Positions 24,060 to 43,819 of a DNA stretch of 64,000 nt are shown piece by piece. The DNA is from an uncultured delta proteobacterium. GTDB lineage: Bacteria; Myxococcota_A; Polyangia; Polyangiales; Polyangiaceae. Each line of letters starts with the position of its first letter. Position 1 is the stretch's first letter. Location: NCBI GenBank assembly GCA_963827955.1, contig CAWHDJ010000018.1, positions 1,309,297 to 1,373,296 of the forward strand. The letters run 5' to 3'. The notes beneath the pieces are model-generated. The model saw only the letters and a program-made list of their open reading frames with translations. It made no database searches and was not told the origin of the DNA. The position numbers and the translations under genes were made by a program.

Positions 24060-25904
24060 CTATGGCCCCCTCCGGAGCTTCGTCCGGAGCCCTGCCATCG
24101 CCTCCTGCAGCGCCTTGTTGTTCCTCCTGAAGCAGGCCACCCCCTGCGTTTGCAGGACCACGAGCGTCCGGCTGTCGCCCTCCGCGACCGCGCGGTCGAG
24201 GAGGCCGAGCTTGTCGATGCACGGCGCCTCGCGCAGGACGAAGGCGATGCGCAGCTCCGGCGTCGCGCGCGCGATGACCTCGGGCTTGCGCAGCACCTCC
24301 GCGGCGCGGAGCGCGGCGGCGACCTTGCCACGCGTCGCCACGAGGTCGTAGAGCAAGTCGAGCCCTTCGGTGCCGAGGCGGTCGGTGAGCGCCTCGAAGA
24401 GGCGGTCACCGCGACGGTCGCGCTCCAGGGCGACGGCGAGGTCGCGCGTGGCGAGGGAGATGTCGGGGGCGCGGAGGGCGCCGGGGTCGTGCGCGGCGAG
24501 GTCGAGGAAGGCGGTCTCGCCGCCCGCCCAGTCGTGGACGCGGAGGGCGCGCAGGAGCAAGGCGCGCGTGTCCCCGAAGGACTCGGGGGCGACGGGGGCG
24601 TCCGTCGCCGCGGCCGCGACGGGGGAGGCCGTGGGGGCGGGCGGCGGGGGCGCCGCGTGGGTGGAGGGCTCGGCGGTGGGGATCGCGGGGGGTGGGGTGG
24701 GCGTGGGCGCCGGCGCGGCCAGGTGCGCGGACGCGGCGGAGCGCCGGGCAGGGGAGGGGTCGTGGAGGACGAGCGCCGCGCCGATGCCGACAGCGATGGA
24801 TACCGCGGCGACCAGCATCGGGAGGTGGTGGCGCGCACGCTCCACGAGCCACGCGGCGGGGCCGAGCGCGGCGTGCGCCGCGACCTCGCCGGGCTTGCCG
24901 ATGGCCGCGTCGAGGGCCTCCACGACGGCGGCGCCCGTCGGGTAGCGGTGAGCCGGGTCCTTCTCGAGCAGCTTCATCACCACGGCCTCGAGCGCCGGCG
25001 GGACGACGATCCCGGGCACGCGCTCCGCGAACGGCGGCGGCGGGGTGAAGCGGTGGGCCGTGAAGATGGCGGCGTCGGTCTCGGCGTCCCAGGGGTAGCG
25101 GCCCGCGAGCATCTGGTAGAGCACGAGGCCCAGCGCGTAGAGGTCGGCCCGCGCGTCCACGTGGTCCATCCCGAGCGCCGCCTCGGGCGCGAGGTACGCC
25201 ACCGTGCCCACAATCGTGCCCACCTCGGTGAGGCGGCCCCTGTCGTCGAGCACCGAGTCGAGGCGGGGGCGCCGCGGGGCCTTGAGGGCGGCGGCGGCGA
25301 TCTCGGGGAGCGTGGCGGCGGGCGGGCGCACCGACTGATGGGCGAGGACGCGATCGACCGGGACCTTGGCCAGGCCGAAGTCGATGAGCTTGGCGAGGTC
25401 GCCCTTGCCCTCGACCAGCATGACGTTCCGCGGCTTGAGATCGCGGTGGACGATGCCCATCGCGTGCGCCGCCTGGAGGGCCGCCGCGATCTGCCGCGCG
25501 ATGTGCGCCGCCCGCGCGGGCGGGAGCGGGCCCTCCTTCATCACCTCGTGGAGCGTCTTGCCGGAGACGTACTCCAGCACGAGGAAGTGCGAGCCGTCCT
25601 CGAGCTGACCGAAGTCGGTGGCCGGCGCCACGTTGGGGTGGACGACGTGCGCGCCGGCGATGGCCTCGCGCTCGAAGCGGGCGAGCATCTCCGGCAGGTT
25701 GTCGGTCTCCGGGAGCAGGACCTTGATGGCGACGCGCTTCCTCAGGTGCCGGTGGTGGCCCCGGTACACCGCCCCCATGCCGCCGAGGGCGAGCAGCTCG
25801 TCGATGCGGTACCGCTGCGAGACGACCTTGCCGACCAGCTCGGCCGCGCGCGCCTCCGCTGCGCGGCTTGGCTTTTCGGGCTCCGAGGGGCTCGGTTCGT
25901 CCAC
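24060..25904 (-). CDS. Ser/Thr protein kinase with TM segment and C-terminal extracytoplasmic domain
   Basis: GGMGAVYRG, VAIKVL, HRDLKPRNVML, DFGLAK and GTVAYLAPE motifs. A TM helix (VAAVSIAVGIGAALVL) precedes a Pro/Ala-rich linker and a ~250-aa domain. Confidence 0.85.
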   Translation of the reverse strand: MDEPSPSEPEKPSRAAEARAAELVGKVVSQRYRIDELLALGGMGAVYRGHHRHLRKRVAIKVLLPETDNLPEMLARFEREAIAGAHVVHPNVAPATDFGQLEDGSHFLVLEYVSGKTLHEVMKEGPLPPARAAHIARQIAAALQAAHAMGIVHRDLKPRNVMLVEGKGDLAKLIDFGLAKVPVDRVLAHQSVRPPAATLPEIAAAALKAPRRPRLDSVLDDRGRLTEVGTIVGTVAYLAPEAALGMDHVDARADLYALGLVLYQMLAGRYPWDAETDAAIFTAHRFTPPPPFAERVPGIVVPPALEAVVMKLLEKDPAHRYPTGAAVVEALDAAIGKPGEVAAHAALGPAAWLVERARHHLPMLVAAVSIAVGIGAALVLHDPSPARRSAASAHLAAPAPTPTPPPAIPTAEPSTHAAPPPPAPTASPVAAAATDAPVAPESFGDTRALLLRALRVHDWAGGETAFLDLAAHDPGALRAPDISLATRDLAVALERDRRGDRLFEALTDRLGTEGLDLLYDLVATRGKVAAALRAAEVLRKPEVIARATPELRIAFVLREAPCIDKLGLLDRAVAEGDSRTLVVLQTQGVACFRRNNKALQEAMAGLRTKLRRGP

Positions 25905-29544: not shown

Positions 29545-29949
29545 TCAGTTGGTGCTGTTGCAGGCCCAGACGACCACGTTGCAGGCGCCGCCGCCCTTCG
29601 ACGCGCACTCGGACTTGGCAGCGCCTTCGGCGGCGGCCTGGTTGCTCCCGAGCCCCGTGGTCATCAGGTTCTTCTTGGTGGTCGACTGCGCGAGCGCGCC
29701 GCACCCCTGATTCCAGGTCACGCGCACCGTGCACGAGCCACACTTGGCCGTCGCCGCGGACTTGGCCAGATCCTCGGTGAGCTGATCGTGGCTGTATCCC
29801 CAGCCACCCGTCTTCTCGTCGAAGGCGATGGCGGCGTGCTTCTGGGTCTTCGCCGCCATCTTGAGGAGCTTGCAGCCCGATGCGCCGATGCCCAGCGCGA
29901 TCATGGCCGTGGAGAAGGCTACAACGTACACCGCGCGTCCGAGTTTCAC
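29545..29949 (-). CDS. secreted DUF4189-family protein
   Basis: GTG at 29949 is preceded by GGAGGA. Signal/lipobox VKLGRAVYVVAFSTAMIALGIGASGC. DUF4189 hallmarks AIAFDEKTGGWGYS, CGSC, GCGALA and CNVVVWACN. Confidence 0.6.
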   Translation of the reverse strand: MKLGRAVYVVAFSTAMIALGIGASGCKLLKMAAKTQKHAAIAFDEKTGGWGYSHDQLTEDLAKSAATAKCGSCTVRVTWNQGCGALAQSTTKKNLMTTGLGSNQAAAEGAAKSECASKGGGACNVVVWACNSTN

Positions 29950-30047
29950 CTGGTTTCCTCCTCGAGTTCTTGCCTGTGGCGAATCGAGGTTACGCGTGAC
30001 GGCCTGGAAGGCAACAACCTCATCGAGCCGTAGCGTATCCTGCCGCG

Positions 30048-31117
30048 GTGAAGCCCCTCTGCGAGATGCCGCACCCAGCGCGCCTCCACCACGCGTTGTT
30101 CCTCGCCGTCGCCTTCGTCCTCTGCGCCTGCGGCGTGACGCTGCCGCACAACCTGGTGATGCGCGACGTCGGCTTCCCGCTCGGGGACCTCCGCTTTCCC
30201 TCGGGTTTGCGCGTGATCGTCGACGAGGACCATCGCGCGCCGGTGGTGGGGGTCTTCCTCCTCGTGGGCGCAGGCTCGACCAGCGACCCGAAAGGGAAGG
30301 AGGGGCTCGCCCACTACGTCGAGCACCTCGCGTTCCAGGCGCGGCCCGATGGAAGACGTCCATCTCGAGCCTCCTCGAGCGCGCGGGGGCGGCTTCGTTC
30401 AACGCCTCCACGGGCCTCGACTACACGATCTACTGGGAGCTGGGGCCGAAAGAGGCGCTCGCCCCGCTGGTGACGCTCGAAGGCGTGCGCTTGACGTCGG
30501 CCGTCGCCAACGTCACGCCCGAGGTCGCGGCCGTCGAGCGGGAGGTGGTGCGCAACGAGCTCAGGGAGCAGAATGAGACGGGGATCTACGGTTCGATCTT
30601 CAGCTACCTGCAGGCGGCCGTCTTCCCCGCAGGCCACCCGTACGCGCGGCCCGTCATCGGCAACCACGAGAGCCTCTCCTCCCTGACGCTCCAGGACGCG
30701 CAGCGCTTCGTCGCGGCAAGCTACCGGCCGGAGAACGTGACCCTCGTGATCGTCGGCGACGTCGATCTGCAGGCGGTGCAGCCGGTCGTGGAGCGGAGCT
30801 GGCCGCCCGAGCTGCTCGCCGGCGCGGCGGCGCACCCAGCAGCGCCGCGGATCAGCGACGTACCGCCGGAGCCGCCGGAGCCGCCCCCGGCGATCCTGGC
30901 GCGCGACCAGGAGGCCGTCGCCGCGCCCGAGCTGTGGATCGGCTGGTCGCTGCCGCGCAGCTTCCGCGGCGAGGGGTCCCTCGCTCCTTTCCTGGCGGCG
31001 GTGACGCAGAACGCGCTCTCGAACGGGCTCTGGCACGACGACGACATCGGGGCGATCCAAGTCCGCCTCGTCGAAGGCGCGGAGGCGTCGATGCTCCTCT
31101 GCCGCGTCGAGCCCTGA
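30048..31117 (+). CDS. M16-family (pitrilysin/insulinase-like) zinc peptidase, unit 1 (apparent frameshift near 30360)
   Basis: Signal peptide and inverted zinc motif HYVEHLAF (HxxEH) in ORF 30048..30473. The rest of the M16/M16_C domains are in ORF 29828..31117 (NETGIYGS..., RFVAASYRPENVTLVIVGDVD). Confidence 0.65.
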
Positions 31118-31150
31118 ACGCGGCGCGGCCCGAGCGGTCCCTCGATCCGC

Positions 31151-32790
<1,640 letters not shown>

Positions 32791-33289: not shown

Positions 33290-34150
33290 TCGCGGCCCTG
33301 TGGAGCAAAGCGGGAGCGATGACCAGCGGAGCTGGAGCGATGCGGAGCGAAGCGGGTGCGATGCGGAGCGAAGTGGCTGCGATGCGGAGCGGAGCGGGGG
33401 CGATGCGGAGCGGAGCAGGGCCGCTGGGGAGCGAAGCAGGATTGCTGGAGGAAGGGAGATGGAATCGATGAGGAGGGAAGCAGGATCGCTGGGGAGCGAA
33501 GCGGGTGTGATGCGGAGCGAAGCTGGATCACTGGGGAGTGAAGCGGGGGTGCTGCGGAGCGGAGCGGGATCGCTGCGGAGCGGAGCGGGATCGCTGCGGA
33601 GCGGAGCGGGATCGCTGCGGAGCGGAGCGGGATTTCTGGGGGAGCGAAGCTGGTTTGCTGGGGAGCGAAGCAGGTGCGCTGCGGAGCGGAGCGGGGGTGC
33701 TGCGGAGCGAAGCGGGGGTGCTGGGGAGCGGAGCGGGGGCGATGGGGAGCGAAGCGGGTTTGCTGGGGAGCGAAGCGGGTTTGCTGGGGAGCGAAGCAGG
33801 TTTTCTGGGGGAGCGGAGCGGGTTTGCTGGGGAGCGAAGCCGGATTGCTGGGGAGCGGAGCGGGTGCGATGCGGAGCGGAGCGGGTGCGATGCGGAGCGA
33901 AGTGGGTGCGATGCGGAGCGAAGTGGGTGCGATGGGGAGCGGAGCGGGGGCGATGGGGAGTGAAGTGGGTGCGCTGGGGAGCGAAGTGGGTGCGTGGGGG
34001 AGCGGAGGGGGTGCGATGCGGAGCGGAACGGGTGCGATGCGGAGCGGAACGGGTGCGGTGCGAAGGGGAGCGGGAGCGATGGGGAGCGGGGCGGGCGCGA
34101 TGCGGAGCGGAGCGGGGGCGAAGCGGAGCGAGAGCGGAAGGGACGACCCC
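33290..34150. repeat. 21-bp minisatellite, ~40 tandem units (gcggagcgaagcgggtgcgat family)
   Basis: Head-to-tail units with sub-variants (gatgcggagcg / gctggggagcgaagcgggtttgct / gctgcggagcggagcgggatc). There are no intervening unique spacers. All six frames are open. Confidence 0.85.
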
Positions 34151-34380
34151 GACCGGGCCGCCGTGTCGAGGCACCGGGGCGACGACCGCCGTGCGGCCCC
34201 TTGCATACGCTGTGCGCCCGGTCTCCTGGCGGGCTCGAGATGGCTGAAATTCCTGGCGGTTCACCACGGCTCGACGAGCCCCCACGGGCTTGACCCGAGC
34301 AGGGTTTCTAGCACGGGGAGGGGTGAAGCCTGCGCGACGCTCGCGGTTGATTTACAATGTGCTCGCACATCGTCGAGCCC

Positions 34381-37300
34381 ATGACCACGGAGTCCACCAC
34401 CGCCCAGCACCTCGACATCGGCATCGTCGTCGCTCTCCCGGAGGAGCTCCGCACCTTCCTCGACCTCTGCGAGCGCTACGTCCCTCACCCCGACGATGAT
34501 CTGGACGCTTACGTCTTCACGCGCGGCCCCTACCGCTGTGCCGTCATCCTCGTCGGCGAGATGGGCCAGACGCACGCGGGCGTGTTCACCGAGCGGCTGA
34601 TCTCGGCGCTCGACCCGACCATCCTCGTCTCCATCGGCATCGCGGGCAGCGTGCACGACGATCTACACGTCGGCGACGTCCACGTCCCGTCGCAGGCCGT
34701 CCAGTACCTCCAGGACGCGAAAGCCGGGCCCGCGCAGAGCGGCGGCTTCGCCGTCGTGCCGGGCGCGCCCGCGTACCGTGCCGACTACGCGCTCCTCTCG
34801 GCCGTCCGCACCTTCGAGTTCGACCACCGTGCCGAGCACACGAAGTGGGTGGCCGACGCCGCAGCGGACCTCGCGGCCCTGCTCGCCGACGACGCCCAGC
34901 GCCAGGGCCTTGTCGCGGGCAAGCTGGTGCGCAGCGCCGCCAGACTCCTCGCAGACGGCCACGTCGCGACCGGCCCGGTCGTGGGCGCCGTCCCCGCGTT
35001 CGGCGCCTGGATCCACACGCACGACCGCAACGTGAAGTCGATCGAGATGGAATCCGCCGCCGTCCTCTCCGCCGCGCAGACCCGGAGCCAGCCGAAGCGG
35101 GCGCTCGCCATCCGCGCGATCTCCGACAAGGGCGACGCCGACAAGAAGAAGCTGGACGACATCGAGGACGGGGTGCTGCGCAGGTATGCGATGCGCAACG
35201 CCGTACGGCTCCTCTGGGCGCTGCTCGACGCGGAGGCGTTGCCGTTCGACGCCCGGCCGTCGACGAGCCCGGCCGACGTTCACATCGCCCGCCTGCCGGC
35301 CACGGGCCGGGAACTGTTCGGTCGGGAGGCGAGAGCTCGCGTGGCTCACCGCGTGCTGGGACGAAGGCGTCCGCGTGGCATCAATCGTCGCCCCCGGCGG
35401 CATGGGGAAGAGCTCGCTGGTGAACGAGTGGCTGAGGCGCATGGACGACGCCGGGTGGCGCGGGGCGACGCGGGTCTATGGATGGTCGTTCTACAACCAG
35501 GGGACCGACGGGCTGGCGTCGTCGGATGAGTTCTTCAGCCATGCGCTGCGGCGGTTCGGGGACACGGAGGCGGCGCCTATCTCCCCCTGGGAGAAGGGAG
35601 AGCGGCTCGCGGCGCTGGTAAGGAAGGAGCGGGCGCTCCTCGTCCTCGACGGCGTGGAGCCGCTGCAATGGGGGCGGGGAGAGCAGGAAGGCAAGCTCAA
35701 GGACCCTGCCTTGCTGGCGCTGCTGAAGGAGCTGGGTGGGCAGAATGTCGGGCTCTGCATCGTCACGAGTCGGATCGCGCTCACGGAGCTGGACGGGGTC
35801 GGCGGGGACAAGGTGCGGGCGAAAGCGCTAGACAAGCTCTCGGCAGCGGCCGGCGCAAAGCTGCTCAGAGCGCGCGGAGCGAAGGGGACTGACGAGGAGT
35901 TGAAGGAAGCCGCAGCGGAATATAAAGGGCACGGGTTGGCGCTCACCCTGCTCGGATCTTATGTGGCGGATGTCGCAGAGGGAGACATTCGAAGAAGGAG
36001 GGAGATTGGCCCGCTGCAAGCGGAAGAGCGGCTCGGTGGGCATGCGCGACGGGTGATGACGGCTTACGAGAAGTGGCTCGGGAAGCCCGAGGTCGCGATC
36101 CTTCGTATGCTCGGACTTTTCGACCGGCCTGCGGAAGAGGACGAGATCGCGGCGCTGCGTGCGGAGCCGGTGGTCCCGGGGCTGACGGACGCGCTGGTGG
36201 GCGTCGATGGACGGGCCTGGAAGAAAGCCGTCGCGAAGCTCGGGCGTGTAGGGCTCCTGGAGGAGCAGGAGCAGGACAAAGGGCTCGATGCTCACCCGCT
36301 GGTGCGCGAGCACTTCGGGGAGCAGCTCAAGGAGGAGCAGCCGGAGGCGTGGCGAGAGGGGCACCGGCGGCTGTATGAGCACTTGAAGAATAAGGCGAGG
36401 CCGTTGCCCGACACCATCGAGGAGATGGCGCCGCTTTATGCGGCGGTGGTGCATGGGTGCAGGGCGGGAGAGAACCAAGCCGTATTCGACGAGATCTACA
36501 ATGCACGTATCGAGCGTGGACAGGAGCGCTTCAACGAGGAAAGGCTCGGAGCTTTCAGTAGCGAGTTGGCCTTTCTCTCGGCTTTCTTCGAATCCACCTT
36601 GGGAGAAGGTGGCACCAGGACTCGGCGAGCCGGAACAGGCCCGGATCCTCAATAACGCAGGCTTCGGGCTCCGAGTGCTGGGTCGGCTGTCGGAGGCCAC
36701 GGGACCGATGCGGATGGGGTTGGAGCGCAACATCAAGCTGGGTGATTGGAAGAGCGCTGCCAGCGCTGCCGCCAACCTGGGCGGGCTCCTTCAAGCCCGC
36801 GGCAAGCTGAAAGAAGCTTTGGCGTCTGCCAGGAACGCCGTTGACTTCGCGGACAAGAGCGGTGATCCCTTCTCTCGTATCGACACCAGGGTGGGGGTAG
36901 CCGAGTTCCTCTTCGCAACGGGGCGCAGACCGGAGGCAGCTGCGCAATTCGAGGAAGCCGAGCAGATGCAGAAAGAGACCCGTCCACACCTCGGCTCGCT
37001 CCAGGGTTTCATGTATTGCGACTTCCTGCTTGACCAGGACCGGGACGCCGAGGTGCGGGAACGCGCATCGCAAACGCTGGAAGGGGCGAGGGAGCAGGGG
37101 GTGCTTCGCGACATCGCCCTCGACCATCTCTCCCTCGGCCGCGCTCACTTTCTCGCCCTCCAGCGCGGCGCTGGCGATGTCGCCCAAGCCGCCTTCCACC
37201 TACGGCAAGCCGTCGATGGCCTCCGCCATGCCGGTTACCAAGAGCACCTTCCTCGCGGCCTCTTTGCCCGCGCCGCCCTCCACACCCACACCCGCGCCTT

Positions 37301-38081
37301 CGACCTCGCCCGGCGCGACCTCGACGAAGCCCTAACCCTCGCCACCCGAAATGGCTTCCCCCTCTTCGAAGCCGACGCCCACCTCGGCCTCGCCCGCCTT
37401 TACCTCGCCGAGGGCAATCCCGCCGCCGCCCGCGAGCACCTCGACCGCGCGCGAACGATCGTCGACGCCATCGGCTACCACCGCCGCGACCGCGAGCTGG
37501 CCGAGCTGGACGCCGCCTGCCCGGCGCCTCTCCAGGCGGTCGACCTCTTCGTGATCCTCAAGCTCGCCGCCCTGAGAGACCCATCGGCGCCGGCGTCCAT
37601 CGTGGCGGAGCAGACCGGGCTCTCGAACGACGCGGTCGCGCTGTCCCTGCACAGGCTCGGGGCGATGGGGCTCTTGAAGGAGGAGGGGGAGCACCGGCGG
37701 ATCAACAAGCTCGCGCTTCGCAAATGTCTCGAGGACGCCGTCCGCTGGATCGCGCCGGCGGAGCTGGGGGGGCTGGAGGTCGGCCTCCCCACGGCGCACT
37801 CGGCGCCCCCGCTGGCGGCGAAGCTGATCGGCGACGACGACCCCATGGTGATCCCGCTCCCGCAAGGTCCGGCGCGAGGGCGCGCGGTCACGCCCTTGCA
37901 CCCCCTCGCACCCGGGGCCGCAGCGCGCGATCCCAAGCTCTACGCGTTGCTCGCCCTCGTGGACGCCCTCCGCATCGGCGGGGCGAGGGAGCGCGAAGTT
38001 GCGGCGAAGGAGCTCGGGCACATCTATGAGGGGCGCGGAGCACATCCGGGCGATCCGCGCGGTGGTCGCGGCGTTCGGTGA
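34381..38081 (+). CDS. STAND NTPase: N-terminal nucleoside-phosphorylase (PNP_UDP_1)-like domain + NB-ARC P-loop ATPase + TPR array (apparent frameshifts near 35300 and 36620)
   Basis: PNP-like domain (IGIVVALPEE...IGIAGS...IEMESAAV) in ORF 34357..35529. NB-ARC motifs GGMGKSSL (Walker A), LLVLDGVE (Walker B) and GLALTLLGSY (GLPL) in ORF 35186..36655. TPR-like helical repeats in ORF 36438..38081. The C-terminal ~170 aa may be a separate wHTH gene. Confidence 0.7.
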
Positions 38082-38721
38082 GCGGGCCGAGCACTTCGTG
38101 TTCGTCGGTGGCTGCGTGCTCGGGTTTTATGCGCGTGCGGAGGGGCCGCCGCTGCGGATGACGGAGGACGTCGATTGCATCTCCTCGCTCTCTCCGTGGT
38201 CCGCGCAGGCCAAGATCCTCGCCGAGCTGTGCGAGGCCGGCGTGATCGAACCCGACGAGTCTCTCTCGTGCCGGTACAGGATCGTCGGCGCGCCCGTGGT
38301 CGTCGACGTGCTCTCGCCCGAGGGCTTCAACGTCGGCGGCGTCAACCCGTGGTTCGCGCGCGCTGCCGAGCGCGCAGCTCGCTACGAGATTGGAGATGGG
38401 GATACCGTGCGAGCCGTCACCCCGCCGTACTTCCTCGTCACGAAGCTCGTCGCGTTCGTCGATCGTGGCCCCGACGCGCAGTCTAGCAAGGACGCCGAGG
38501 ACATCGTGGCGCTGGCCGTCGAGGTGCCTTCGCTCGTGGATGAGGTACAGGCAGAGGGGCTGCGCAAGGACGTCGCCGCTCTGTGGGAGCGCGTGTTCGA
38601 AAAGTACGGGTTCGCGCGCTCGGACCTGGCGGACTTCGTCGACTGGCACCTCGACCGAGGGGATCGGCCAGACCGGGATCGCGCCATTGGTATGCTGTCC
38701 GAGCTGGCCGAGGTAGGTTGA
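38026..38721 (+). CDS. nucleotidyltransferase-fold protein (AbiEii/DUF1814-like)
   Basis: ORF 37999..38721; the preferred start is MRGAEH. NTase signature FVGGCVLGFYARAEGPPLRMTEDVDCI (hGG x17 DhD). Confidence 0.5.
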   Translation: MRGAEHIRAIRAVVAAFGERAEHFVFVGGCVLGFYARAEGPPLRMTEDVDCISSLSPWSAQAKILAELCEAGVIEPDESLSCRYRIVGAPVVVDVLSPEGFNVGGVNPWFARAAERAARYEIGDGDTVRAVTPPYFLVTKLVAFVDRGPDAQSSKDAEDIVALAVEVPSLVDEVQAEGLRKDVAALWERVFEKYGFARSDLADFVDWHLDRGDRPDRDRAIGMLSELAEVG

Positions 38722-40895: not shown

Positions 40896-43819
40896 ATGGA
40901 GACGAATCGACCGTACGACGACTTCGAAGAGTTTGCGGGCCTCCAGACCGTGCTCGAGCTCGAATCGCATCCGCTGGGAGGAGGTCCCTCCGTGGATCAA
41001 GGATCCGGGCTTGCTCGACCCGGAGGTGGCCTTCAAGGACGGCTTCGTCGAGCCGCTCGCGTACGAGTACCACCCCGCGCTCCTCTCGCCCGTGAAGGAC
41101 TGGGAGAAAGAGACGCTGAAGCTCCAGACCGGCGCAAGCGTGGTCGAGTTCGCGCCCGACGGGGCCTTCACGCCGAATCGAGCCGCCGCCCGGGATCTAC
41201 TGCGTCGTGAACGGGACCTTCAAGCTCGTGGTCACCCACGCGGGGCGCCGGCGGGTGGTGTCCGCGTGCGGCAGAGGGTGCCTGCTCGGGCTGCCGCGCC
41301 TCCTGCGCATGTACCACGCCAGGCTCGGGGTCGACGCGCCCTGGCCCAGGGACACGCGGGTGGAGGCCGTGGCGCTCGGAGGGACGCCCCCGAGCTCCGC
41401 TTCATGCCGCTGGAGAGCGCGTTCTACTTGATGAAGACGCGGCGCGATTTCCGCCGCTTCGTCGCCAACAACGTGGCGGTCCGCTTCGTCCACCACCGCC
41501 GCATCATGGAGGTCGTCCGCAGGAACTACGTCCTCCGCTACCTCCCTCCCGAGAGCCTCGAGTACGTGCTCCAGTTCGGCGCGCTCCGTCGCTTCGACGT
41601 CCTCTCGGAGTCGGACGGCGAGGCGCTCTCGCAGAACGTGCGCTACCTCGCGGCCGGCAGGCGCGCGAACCGGGGAGCCTCTGATCCTGGCGGGCCAGGC
41701 GAGCACGCACTTCCCGCGCCCCGAGCCGGAGAAGGACGGCTTGCGCGCCGATGCTCCGGGCCCGTTCGTCGGCGCGGGGTTGCCCGGCCAGCTCGTTGGC
41801 TACGAGAACATCATCACCGACACGGAGCCCACGCGCCGCACCGACATCTACATCACGCAGGGCACGGAGTTCCTCGAGTTCTGCTGGTACGTCATGAAGG
41901 TGGTGGAGAACGGATCGCTGCTCGCGTTCAACCGGGGCTTCCAGGTCATGGCCGGAGAGACGGAGGCCGAGCCCATCGCGCCGGTGGTCAGCTTCCAGGC
42001 CGCGCACCCCGGCCTCAACGTCGTCACGCTGGCCTACGGCGCCGCGGCGTCGCTGGCGCACGACGCGGGGGGCAGCGTCGTCGTCATCGACCTCCAGGGG
42101 ACGGAGAGCTTCATGCGGGCGATCGAGGCCCCCGAGCCCATCAAGGACATCGAGATGCCCGAGCCCGCCGACCCCAACCCTGTCTCCGAGCTCCTCGCGC
42201 GCTGGAACACGACGCTGATGCCGGTCCCCATCGACCAGCGCACGGGGGGCGTCCCCCAGCTCGTGGTCCGCTGGCCCAAGGCGGGGGAGGGCGCGCGCCT
42301 GACGGTCGAGGACGTCCTGCAGACGATCGAGCTGGAGCGCATGGGAAATGGCCCGCGCAGGATCGTGGTCGTCCACGACCCCGCGCCCGGGGACGACCCG
42401 ACGTTCGCCCACGATCTGGCCGAGCGCCTCAACCTCCAGAGCGAGGCCGTCTTCTACGTGGGCGACGACTCCGACGCCAAGTACCACCTCAGCGAGGAGG
42501 AGCCGGACACGCTGACCTGGGTGTTCCGGATGAACCGCGCCTACGTCGAGCGGGAGCGCAAGCACACGGAGAAGCTCGAGGGGGACACGGTCGACAGGCA
42601 CTACACGACGCGCCGGGTCGTCCGCATCCCGGAGGCGCGCAACGATCTCCTCGACGTGCGCACGGAGGAGATCCGCGCGGAGGTCGACGGCATCGACCCC
42701 AGGAACGTGGATCCCTCCCGCATGGCGCGGGCGTTCCAGCCCGAGGTGATCAAGCGGTCACCGCTCGCCCGCGCGTTCCACCGCCTCGCCCGCGTCGTGG
42801 AGCGGCGCACGGTGGGCGTGGCCCTGAGCGGCGGGGGGGCCTGGGGGTTCTGCCACATCCCGCTGCTCATGAAGCTCGAGGCCGAGGGGGTCCCCGTCGA
42901 CTTCGTGACCGGCACGTCGTTCGGCTCCGTGATCGGCGCGATCTACACCGCCGGCGGCACGGCCGCCCTCAAGGCGTTCATCGAGGAGAACTGCATGAAG
43001 CCGGGGGAGTGGCAAGCGGCCCGCCTCACGGGCTCCATCCGCGGCGTGCTCGACAGCGAGCTCACGACGACCATCCTGGGCCTCACCCCAATCGACTCCA
43101 GGTTCCTCGAGCGCTTCATCAACCGAGAGGCGCAGCGCTACGGCACCGGCGGCCCGCCGCTCCTCATGACCACCGAGATCCCCTTCTACCCGGTCGGCAC
43201 CGACCTCGACGGGCTGCACGAGTTCTTCGACGTCCGGAAGAGCCTGGGATGGGGCGTGCGCATGTCGGGCGCCATGCCCCCCATCTATCCCCCGGTGGAG
43301 GTCTCCGTGACGGGGAAGGGCAAGTCGCCTCCCCCTCCGCTGACCGACCCCAGGTACGAGTTCACCTTCCGCGCGAACCCGCCGCGGGCGCGGGACGAGC
43401 ACCACGTCGTCGACGGCGCGTTCATCGCCAACGTCCCTTCCCGCGTCGCGCGCAGCGTCGGCGCAGACTTCGTGATCGCCGCCAACGTCATCCCGCCCAC
43501 CCCGGAGGAGGCGCCGCGCATGGGCGGTATCCTGGGCATGTTCCAGGCGATGTTCGAGACCTTCACGCCGACGGGGCTGCTCCGCCGCGCCGACAATCTG
43601 AACCGCGGCACCTTCCTCCAGACCTGGAAGGGCGGTGACGACCAGGGCCGCATCTGGGCGGAGTACCGGGTGACCCTCCAGCCCCAGGGCTTCCAGTTCT
43701 ACGAGATGTGGCGCGGGCAGGACATCTGCGAGCAGATGGGACACCGAATCGACGTCTACGGCATCCGCGACCTGCGCGAGCGGTGGGAGGCCCTCTCTCC
43801 GGCCCGCCGGGGAGGTTGA
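40896..43819 (+). CDS. cNMP-binding-domain / patatin-like phospholipase (NTE-like; several apparent frameshifts in N-terminal third)
   Basis: The N-terminus (METNRPYDDFEEFAGLQTVLE...) and a cNMP-binding-like segment (FAPDGAFTPNRAA..NGTFKLVVTHAGRRRVVSACGRGCLLG...) are spread over three frames. The patatin domain is intact in ORF 41741..43819: GVALSGGGAWGFCHIPLL, GTSFGSVIGAIY (GxSxG) and VVDGAFIANVP (catalytic Asp). Confidence 0.6.

Follow-up and report, generated by a model that had tools for sequence, protein, structure and literature searches.

Does the region at positions 34381-38081 of a myxobacterial contig encode a bacterial counterpart of the NLR immune sensors, and is the gene that it holds a working one? 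The region lies in a 64,000-nt stretch of contig CAWHDJ010000018.1 from an uncultured member of the Polyangiaceae, referred to as the window herein, and all coordinates are window positions unless a relative is named. A preliminary description of this range had proposed a single frameshift-split unit of ~1,230 aa, in which a nucleoside phosphorylase-type (PNP) effector domain precedes an NB-ARC ATPase and a tetratricopeptide repeat (TPR) array. We conclude that the locus probably encodes an Avs-like (NLR-like) PNP-STAND-TPR abortive-infection sensor of ~1046 aa. This reading is supported here by the domain identities, the conserved catalytic and P-loop residues, the switch fold, the intact full-length homologs and the immune-type family to which the protein belongs.

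Domain layout of the repaired protein

The range is covered by three overlapping open reading frames (ORFs) on the plus strand, at 34357-35529, 35186-36655 and 36438-38081 in frames 1, 2 and 3, respectively, and the motifs quoted in the preliminary description were all found at the expected sites across them (Table 1). When homologs were aligned to the window by tblastn, one protein was seen to cross all three frames. The split by frameshifts therefore holds, but the length of ~1,230 aa does not, as the repaired STAND protein comes to ~1046 aa. This size is confirmed by the intact 1043-aa homolog P0285, which matches end to end, is 52% identical across residues 8-1046 of the repaired protein and terminates three residues past the aligned ...ELDEAV. 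A further homolog, P0028, carries the same in-frame PNP-NTPase fusion with 61-64% identity, and the PNP start at 34381 agrees with the homologs and with the NCBI gene call P0121. The three-part layout is real and consists of a PNP_UDP_1 nucleosidase domain of the 5′-methylthioadenosine/S-adenosylhomocysteine (MTA/SAH) nucleosidase (MTAN) type, a STAND NTPase and ~300 aa of TPRs.

The identity proposed for the N-terminal domain was confirmed by a Pfam PF01048 match of 87.3 bits (cut-off 25.1; E = 1.3e-24) over profile positions 1-231 of 233. Its best PDB-sequence matches by phmmer are MTA/SAH nucleosidases (best E = 6e-9), and in these alignments E22, E224, and D249 are the counterparts of E. 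coli MtnN E12, E174, and D197. In the PNP family alignment, no variation is seen at E224 and D249 and almost none at E22. The AlphaFold2 (AF2) model of the domain (pLDDT 85) matches MTAN and futalosine hydrolase folds by Foldseek (E = 1e-16, target-normalized TM 0.81-0.84) and contains an extra, confidently predicted helical insert of ~45 aa at residues 136-179. Within PADLOC, the domain matches the candidate-system protein PDC-M60C and the 506-position "Effector, PN-superfamily" model (E = 1.2e-11, 42 bits). The NCBIfam nucleosidase/phosphorylase models (MtnN, DeoD) all scored far under their cut-offs, with MtnN at 68 bits versus 169. Neither a sequence profile search nor a fold search found a solved immune PNP structure. 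An exhaustive search yielded 1705 cluster representatives of the domain at E<=1e-3, and we took a census of Pfam co-domains in 60 among the closest representatives, picked by length (>=700 aa or ~375-560 aa). The co-domains were TPR (12), NACHT (7), AAA_16 (7), NB-ARC (6), TIR (5), WD40 (4), and SAVED (3). Judged by homology, the PNP domain is probably not a housekeeping enzyme, and it likely falls in the immune ATP nucleosidase clade of Cap17 and DtcC.

The NTPase was classified from its AF2 model because Pfam, NCBIfam, and PADLOC gave no NB-ARC, NACHT, or Avs assignment. Upon a Foldseek comparison of this model (pLDDT 90.1) with the PDB, the top matches were closed, ADP-bound Apaf-1 structures (3sfz/1z6t, E 8e-11 to ~1e-10, query-normalized TM 0.61-0.63), followed by the archaeal STAND-TPR protein PH0952 (6mfv), MalT (8bob), plant NLRs, and CED-4. 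By hidden Markov model (HMM), Pfam NB-ARC (PF00931) did not match the NTPase even at E<=10. AAA_16 reached 32.2 bits on the second ORF, below its cut-off of 32.6, and nSTAND1 was at noise level (E = 0.014). Pfam NACHT (PF05729) gave E = 0.12 and 12.6 bits against a cut-off of 26.7, which does not place the protein among the bNACHTs. None of the PADLOC Avs1-5/NLR models matched the repaired 1051-aa protein, for which only PNP and TPR models appeared at E<=1, and a family profile searched against PDB sequences reached TPR proteins only. The NB-ARC ATPase proposed earlier is thus upheld by structure, in the Apaf-1-like fold, and by its motifs, but not by the HMM. Some PNP-STAND relatives, among them P0274 at 29.1 bits, do pass Pfam NB-ARC.

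The family of this NTPase comprises 2867 homologs at E<=1e-5 among the candidates scored, with its best matches in Polyangium, Byssovorax, and Minicystis. Ahead of this NTPase-TPR body, family members carry TIR, DUF4062, Mrr_cat, PNP, or effector-associated domains, or nothing at all. Seen across these homologs, swappable N-terminal effectors on one NTPase-TPR body are a hallmark of conflict-system STANDs. The Avs/bNACHT-type architecture claimed for the locus is therefore borne out as a tripartite layout with swappable effectors, but not as a PADLOC Avs or Pfam NACHT match. Together, the PADLOC effector matches, the PNP co-domains, and the effector swapping in the NTPase family sustain the placement of the protein in a conflict system.

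Pfam TPR_12 (6e-12), TPR_2, and TPR_MalT match the third ORF, in keeping with the C-terminal TPR array described before, and profile matches in the PDB are the TPRs of Pins/LGN, AfsR, MalT, and PH0952. Homologous STANDs terminate 3-15 residues past ...GYHRRDxELxxL, a point that corresponds to 37508 in the window. Frame 3 stays open from 37508 to 38081 with no intervening stop. The STAND unit does not, however, end at 38081 as had been proposed, since homology stops at ~37508 and the C-terminal ~190 aa are a different module, PDC-M21A, which is followed by a PDC-M21B gene. In a composition profile, the NTPase-TPR part has a G+C content of 64-67% versus 70-73% in the flanks. Over 35333-37505 the value is 66-67.5%, versus 71.6% in the whole window and 71-73% in the PNP and M21A parts, which would fit a gene of mosaic make-up or one acquired horizontally.

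Origin of the frameshifts

Is the gene broken in the organism or only in its assembly? The first frameshift lies inside the conserved LFGRxxELxWL, where tblastn of the homologs shows that LFGRE ends at 35328 and ELAWL begins at 35333; P0028 reads GRKEELAWL across the site. The second lies inside the conserved LSAFF(D/E)PPWE, where LSAFFE ends at 36592 and PPWEKV begins at 36594, and the window reads TTCGAATCCACC versus TTCGATCCACCC in the homolog L001. In a 49-sequence family alignment that includes 48 homologs, both sites fall in contiguous, nearly invariant segments. This implies that the frameshifts are disruptions and not natural gene boundaries. Programmed frameshifting was ruled out, as the sites are not slippery and the homologs are intact or broken elsewhere.

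The insertions could be genuine, in which case the gene would be a decaying NLR-like remnant, kept only for the fused M21A/M21B module or for its neighbors. Related loci frequently show damage elsewhere: the frameshift of L001 lies 12 codons further downstream, P0149 shifts frame within its NTPase, and L027 retains PNP residues 1-234 only. Neither insertion in the window falls within a long homopolymer, and the public NCBI/ENA gene calls P0001 (333 aa) and P0121 (382 aa) are the same fragments, so the indels are present in the deposited assembly. However, the 64-kb window contains at least three further breaks of the indel type. An M16 peptidase at 29828-32790 is split into half of an M16_C domain (profile 1-87) and, downstream in another frame, a nearly complete M16_C (profile 9-178). 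Similarly, a FAD_binding_3 mono-oxygenase at 43674-45468 matches profile positions 3-76 and 113-324 in adjacent frames. A third indel of the locus itself lies in a G-run at 38016-38018, which reads GGG in the window and GGGG in the relative L007. Since single-base indels are this dense and also strike ordinary genes, assembly error is likelier than decay. The reading frames are, moreover, fully open apart from the two indels, with 52-75% identity to intact homologs and all invariant residues kept. Real frameshifts would also strip the toxin-like M21B of its partner, provided that M21A depends on translation of the STAND gene, as may be supposed. We consider a true pseudogene unlikely, and the two 1-nt insertions are more likely to be sequencing or assembly errors than signs of decay.

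Placement of the PNP domain and the fused M21A module

A genome search with a PNP profile built from an alignment returned 16 loci, of which only that of Polyangium sp. 6x1 was close; with a single PNP sequence, the search for related loci returned none. The closest PNP homologs are mostly free 290-aa proteins with a conserved ...ALPxNPR* end, a tail that the upstream-fused forms share, and they always lie beside STAND genes. At L002 (8001-13306) and L005 (6319-9414), the free PNP is directly upstream of an NTPase-TPR gene. In Polyangium aurulentum (CP079217) and Polyangium sp. 6x1, PNP is instead the last part of an NTPase-TPR-Pro-rich linker-PNP protein of 1283 and 1082 aa, respectively, and an effector-less NTPase-TPR gene (764 or 760 aa) begins 42 nt after the PNP-bearing gene. 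At L026 (801-6266), the intact PNP-STAND P0285 comes after a 760-aa STAND that lacks an effector. In the Polyangia loci L006 (4108-10295), L010 (3643-9215), L026, L002, and L005, PNP is found between two tandem STANDs. By this comparison, PNP lies amid a tandem pair of STANDs and is linked with the upstream one, the downstream one, or neither. That this trading in Polyangia reflects paired-NLR-like sensor/helper operation is conceivable but rather improbable.

The window holds the downstream fused form only, and a 21-bp repeat array occupies the place of the upstream STAND. The 42-nt spacer from the PNP stop to the next STAND start (L006 7960-8000; L010 6892-6932) contains a conserved inverted repeat, GCCGGTCGCC...GGCGACCGGC. 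As the window linker FDARPSTSPADVH (35245-35283) is homologous to this spacer at the DNA level, the PNP-STAND fusion appears to have arisen through stop loss. The repeat array is directly upstream of the PNP-STAND start and makes long spurious ORFs on both strands. The closest relative of the PNP domain is a remnant on ENA ERZ27314309 k141_1929335 (L027, 402-1186), with 83.6% nt identity to window 34300-35083. Its homology ends after EMESAAVL, which leaves it with neither the catalytic Asp nor any of the STAND, and its genomic context is different.

Beyond the TPRs, the homologs of M21A are free-standing winged helix-turn-helix (wHTH) proteins of 170-174 aa that start with MDKPxPAPLQAVDL and end with KELGARL*. 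In DNA alignments, homology to the free cassettes sets in at TGGAC, within their ATG-GAC. The corresponding letters of the window are CTG-GAC, in which the CTG at 37506-37508, the last Leu codon of the STAND, stands in place of the M21A ATG; the in-frame fusion of STAND and M21A thus falls precisely on the M21A start codon. This very junction, RELAELDAACPAPLQAVDL, occurs in the independent metagenome contig L007, which has 84.9% nt identity over TPR-M21A-M21B and a fusion ORF that is open to the contig end. Because the same junction was assembled independently, the fusion is real, inherited from a shared ancestor, and no assembly artifact. The G missing from the run at 38016-38018 turns the KELGA(R/H)L* end into a 17-aa longer tail. 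Restoring it gives the M21A end KELGAHL*, the expected stop TGA at 38027-38029, and an ATGA overlap with the M21B start at 38026; the M21B ATG of L007 overlaps the M21A stop in the same way (ATGA). The G-run region of L007 lies at L007 ~1120-1146, and the L007 M21B looks frameshifted near its C-terminus.

The M21B ORF, with its ATG at 38026, passes Pfam AbiEii with 35.7 bits against a cut-off of 22.5, and M21A has no AbiEi Pfam match. Adjoining A (wHTH) and B (AbiEii) genes that match the models make up the two-gene PDC-M21 module. PDC systems are untested "guilt-by-embedding" candidates (10.1101/2024.01.29.577857). Elsewhere, the M21AB cassettes of L008 and L009 are not beside STAND genes, so the association is lineage-specific, and a functional linkage of STAND and M21AB as a general rule was ruled out. 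The in-frame STAND-M21A fusion is an unusual feature of the locus. We think it rather improbable that the junction is functional, so that the antitoxin-like partner of an AbiEii-type nucleotidyltransferase would be physically coupled to an NLR-like sensor. If it were, ligand-driven oligomerization would activate PNP and, in addition, either sequester M21A or set it free, with M21B let loose as a second effector arm.

Table 1 Features of the PNP-STAND-TPR locus and its flanks, in window positions
Feature	Position	Strand	Basis or remark
21-bp tandem repeat AGCGGAGCGGGTGCGCTGCGG	33325-34137	n/a	~38.5 copies, 81% matches, G skew +0.33
PNP_UDP_1 / MTAN-type nucleosidase domain and linker	34381-35328	+	structured part ~34417-35229
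IGIVVALPEE	34417-34446	+	motif of the preliminary description
Catalytic E22 (predicted)	34444-34446	+	ALPEE aligned with AMEEE of MTANs
GIAGS	34636-34650	+	motif of the preliminary description
IEMESAAV	35041-35064	+	motif of the preliminary description
Catalytic E224 (predicted)	35050-35052	+	EMESA aligned with EMEAA of MTANs
Catalytic D249 (predicted)	35125-35127	+	RAISD aligned with RAISD of MTANs
Conserved linker end / STAND N-terminal motif IARLPATGRELFGRE	35284-35328	+	homolog alignment
Frameshift 1	35329-35332	+	gcga (4 nt) versus one codon in homologs, one extra base; frame 1 to 2
STAND NTPase module NBD-HD1-WHD-HD2	35333-36592	+	AF2 model, motifs
Walker A GGMGKSS	35396-35416	+	invariant alignment columns
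GGMGKSSL	35396-35419	+	motif of the preliminary description
Walker B LLVLD	35636-35650	+	invariant alignment columns
LLVLDGVE	35636-35659	+	motif of the preliminary description
Sensor-1 TSR	35765-35773	+	invariant alignment columns
GLPL-like GHGLALTLLG	35927-35956	+	invariant columns; variant form
GHGLALTLLGSY	35927-35962	+	GLPL-like motif of the preliminary description
MHD-like AHPLVRE	36290-36310	+	invariant columns; variant form
Frameshift 2	36591-36593	+	GAAT versus GAT in homolog L001, one extra base; frame 2 to 3
TPR sensor region, ~305 aa	36594-37508	+	ends ...GYHRRDRELAEL
PDC-M21A-like wHTH gene (AbiEi-like position)	37506-38081	+	PADLOC PDC-M21A E = 2.4e-30
PDC-M21B / AbiEii-like nucleotidyltransferase gene	38026-38721	+	PADLOC PDC-M21B E = 4.9e-27; Pfam AbiEii E = 1.2e-8

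Predicted mechanism and known counterparts

How would such a protein act? For its substrate, trigger, oligomerization, and defense phenotype, we infer a mechanism by analogy with characterized Avs proteins, Apaf-1-type STANDs, and Cap17/DtcC. At rest, the TPR region and bound ADP would keep the protein closed. An invader-derived ligand on the TPRs would release autoinhibition and lead to ADP-to-ATP exchange and oligomerization; ligand-driven oligomerization of the Avs type is known, for example, from SeAvs7 (PMC13581612). The oligomer would cluster the PNP domains and so activate them. Each may then cut a purine nucleotide, most likely ATP/dATP, at its N-glycosidic bond, to yield adenine together with (deoxy)ribose-5′-triphosphate. 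The destruction of nucleotides would starve the cell and the replicating phage, resulting in abortive infection or growth arrest.

Several observations weigh against such a sensor. No Avs, bNACHT, or NB-ARC HMM recognizes the NTPase, the gene is not intact as deposited, and its neighborhood is mostly one of ordinary metabolism, with no defense island. By score, the NCBIfam MtnN model (68 bits) outdoes the PADLOC effector model (42 bits) on the PNP domain. The relatives L001, P0149, and L027 are broken or truncated elsewhere, which suggests that real decay of such genes is common.

The PNP domain might also act by making a signal, in which case the released base or a phosphoribosyl product would activate a separate effector without ATP depletion. 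Second-messenger generation has been predicted for PNPase-superfamily domains in NTP-dependent conflict systems (Kaur, Burroughs, Iyer, Aravind; PMC7159879), and a PNP that is free or attached to either tandem STAND in relatives is compatible with a diffusible product. However, the immune PNP domains that have been tested (Cap17, DtcC, fungal NLRN, and sponge DDAN) are toxic ATP/dATP nucleosidases alone, and no receptor candidate (SLATT, SAVED, or CARF-like) adjoins the locus. We therefore hold signaling by PNP to be improbable.

A MalT/AfsR-like STAND transcription factor, with an NTPase-TPR-helix-turn-helix layout completed by the fused wHTH, is very unlikely. It would account for MalT (8bob) and PH0952 being among the best structural matches, for the family profile matching the TPRs of AfsR and MalT, and for an in-frame wHTH that is conserved in two assemblies. 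However, this wHTH comes from the mobile M21A/B cassette, is free-standing elsewhere, and occurs in no other member of the family, for which N-terminal enzymatic effectors of the death type (TIR, DUF4062, Mrr, PNP) are typical.

Lastly, a housekeeping nucleosidase gene that merely adjoins an unrelated STAND gene, as the mostly free PNP homologs and the solved MtnN matches might suggest, deserves next to no credence: the linker is in frame in the window and no stop codon separates the PNP domain from the STAND N-terminal motif IARLPATGRELFGRE, as a separately encoded N-domain would require, free PNP genes always directly adjoin STAND genes, the NCBIfam MtnN and DeoD scores are all far under their cut-offs, and the fission and fusion of PNP with STANDs indicates that PNP works with the STAND, which refutes an unrelated neighbor.

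The Avs-like PNP-STAND-TPR protein favored here is of a kind already described, to which the locus adds another example. The PNP domains of the Cap17 clade act as ATP nucleosidases and form the N-terminal part of diverse Avs proteins in bacteria as well as of NLRs in fungi (10.1101/2023.01.24.525353), PNP_UDP is a frequent N-domain of fungal NLRs (PMC10197012), and a 2026 survey lists 589 clades of STANDs, TPR-like sensors being present in many (PMC13581612). To call the combination likely uncharacterized, as the preliminary description did, was too strong, since a PNP N-terminus was reported for diverse bacterial Avs proteins and for fungal NLRs in 2023 (10.1101/2023.01.24.525353; PMC10197012). 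In the literature searched, we found no experimental test of a bacterial PNP-STAND protein. The in-frame PDC-M21A/B capture, the mobile PNP position, and the broken copy are secondary unusual points.

The bacterial Avs/NLR-like proteins with a Cap17-clade PNP (Rousset et al. 2023) share with the window protein the PNP effector, STAND NTPase, and repeat sensor, and also the predicted logic by which sensing would lead to oligomerization and nucleotide destruction. They were catalogued and not tested; the window protein differs in that its NTPase has no PADLOC Avs match, its frame is broken, and it is fused to M21A. Fungal NLRs, such as NLRN of Hyaloscypha variabilis (PMC10197012), have the same domain order of PNP_UDP, NB-ARC/NACHT, and TPR, and the PNP domain of NLRN is an ATP nucleosidase in vitro (10.1101/2023.01.24.525353); they are eukaryotic, however, and are likened to the window protein by domain order. 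Cap17 of CBASS and DtcC of Detocs resemble it in their PNP-superfamily effector, the conserved catalytic Asp, and the PADLOC effector model match. They differ in being triggered by cyclic oligonucleotides or phosphotransfer rather than by a fused STAND; identity to them is low, and ATP/dATP is for the window domain a predicted substrate.

Among switch proteins, Apaf-1, CED-4, plant NB-ARC proteins, PH0952, and MalT share the closed NBD-HD1-WHD-HD2 fold (Foldseek E 1e-10 to 1e-9, query-normalized TM ~0.6), and the P-loop and the TTR-like, GLPL-like, and MHD-like motifs recur in the window protein. Identity is only 13-17%, however, the MHD motif of the window is AHP, its GLPL motif lacks the Pro, and there is no Pfam NB-ARC match. 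MtnN and futalosine hydrolase are the closest solved folds of the PNP domain, with the catalytic Glu/Glu/Asp conserved. In contrast to these enzymes, to which identity is ~20%, the window-type domain has the ~45-aa insert, always has a STAND neighbor, and scores below the NCBIfam cut-offs. The AbiE (AbiEi/AbiEii) type IV toxin-antitoxin and PDC-M21 pairs resemble the downstream genes, which match M21A/B and of which M21B passes the AbiEii cut-off; the M21A of the window, however, has no AbiEi Pfam match and no ATG of its own and is reached by read-through of the STAND gene.

The repaired gene, with its intact 1043-aa homolog, offers a concrete construct for the question whether NLR-type oligomerization would activate an ATP nucleosidase, in an architecture that abounds in fungal NLRs. 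Fast rearrangement is likewise on display here: effectors are split off and fused, genes persist as truncated remnants, and a toxin-antitoxin-like cassette has been captured. For annotation, it carries a warning that the reading unit is two gene modules and that the assembly is rich in single-base indels.

The genes around the locus encode a cytochrome bd oxidase, a DTW protein, a Ser/Thr kinase, an M16 peptidase, a lipoprotein, a patatin-like protein, a FAD mono-oxygenase, and an enoyl-CoA hydratase. A large defense-island context was ruled out by these neighbors of mostly ordinary metabolism. The Ser/Thr protein kinase at 24060-25904 on the minus strand matches PADLOC PD-T4-6 with E = 8e-81, but this probably reflects the general likeness of kinases, in which this myxobacterium is rich, and not a defense gene. 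The large ORF at 41435-43816 carries at its C-terminus a patatin-like phospholipase domain (Pfam E = 5e-14) behind an N-terminal part of ~460 aa without assignment, and it has no PADLOC match.

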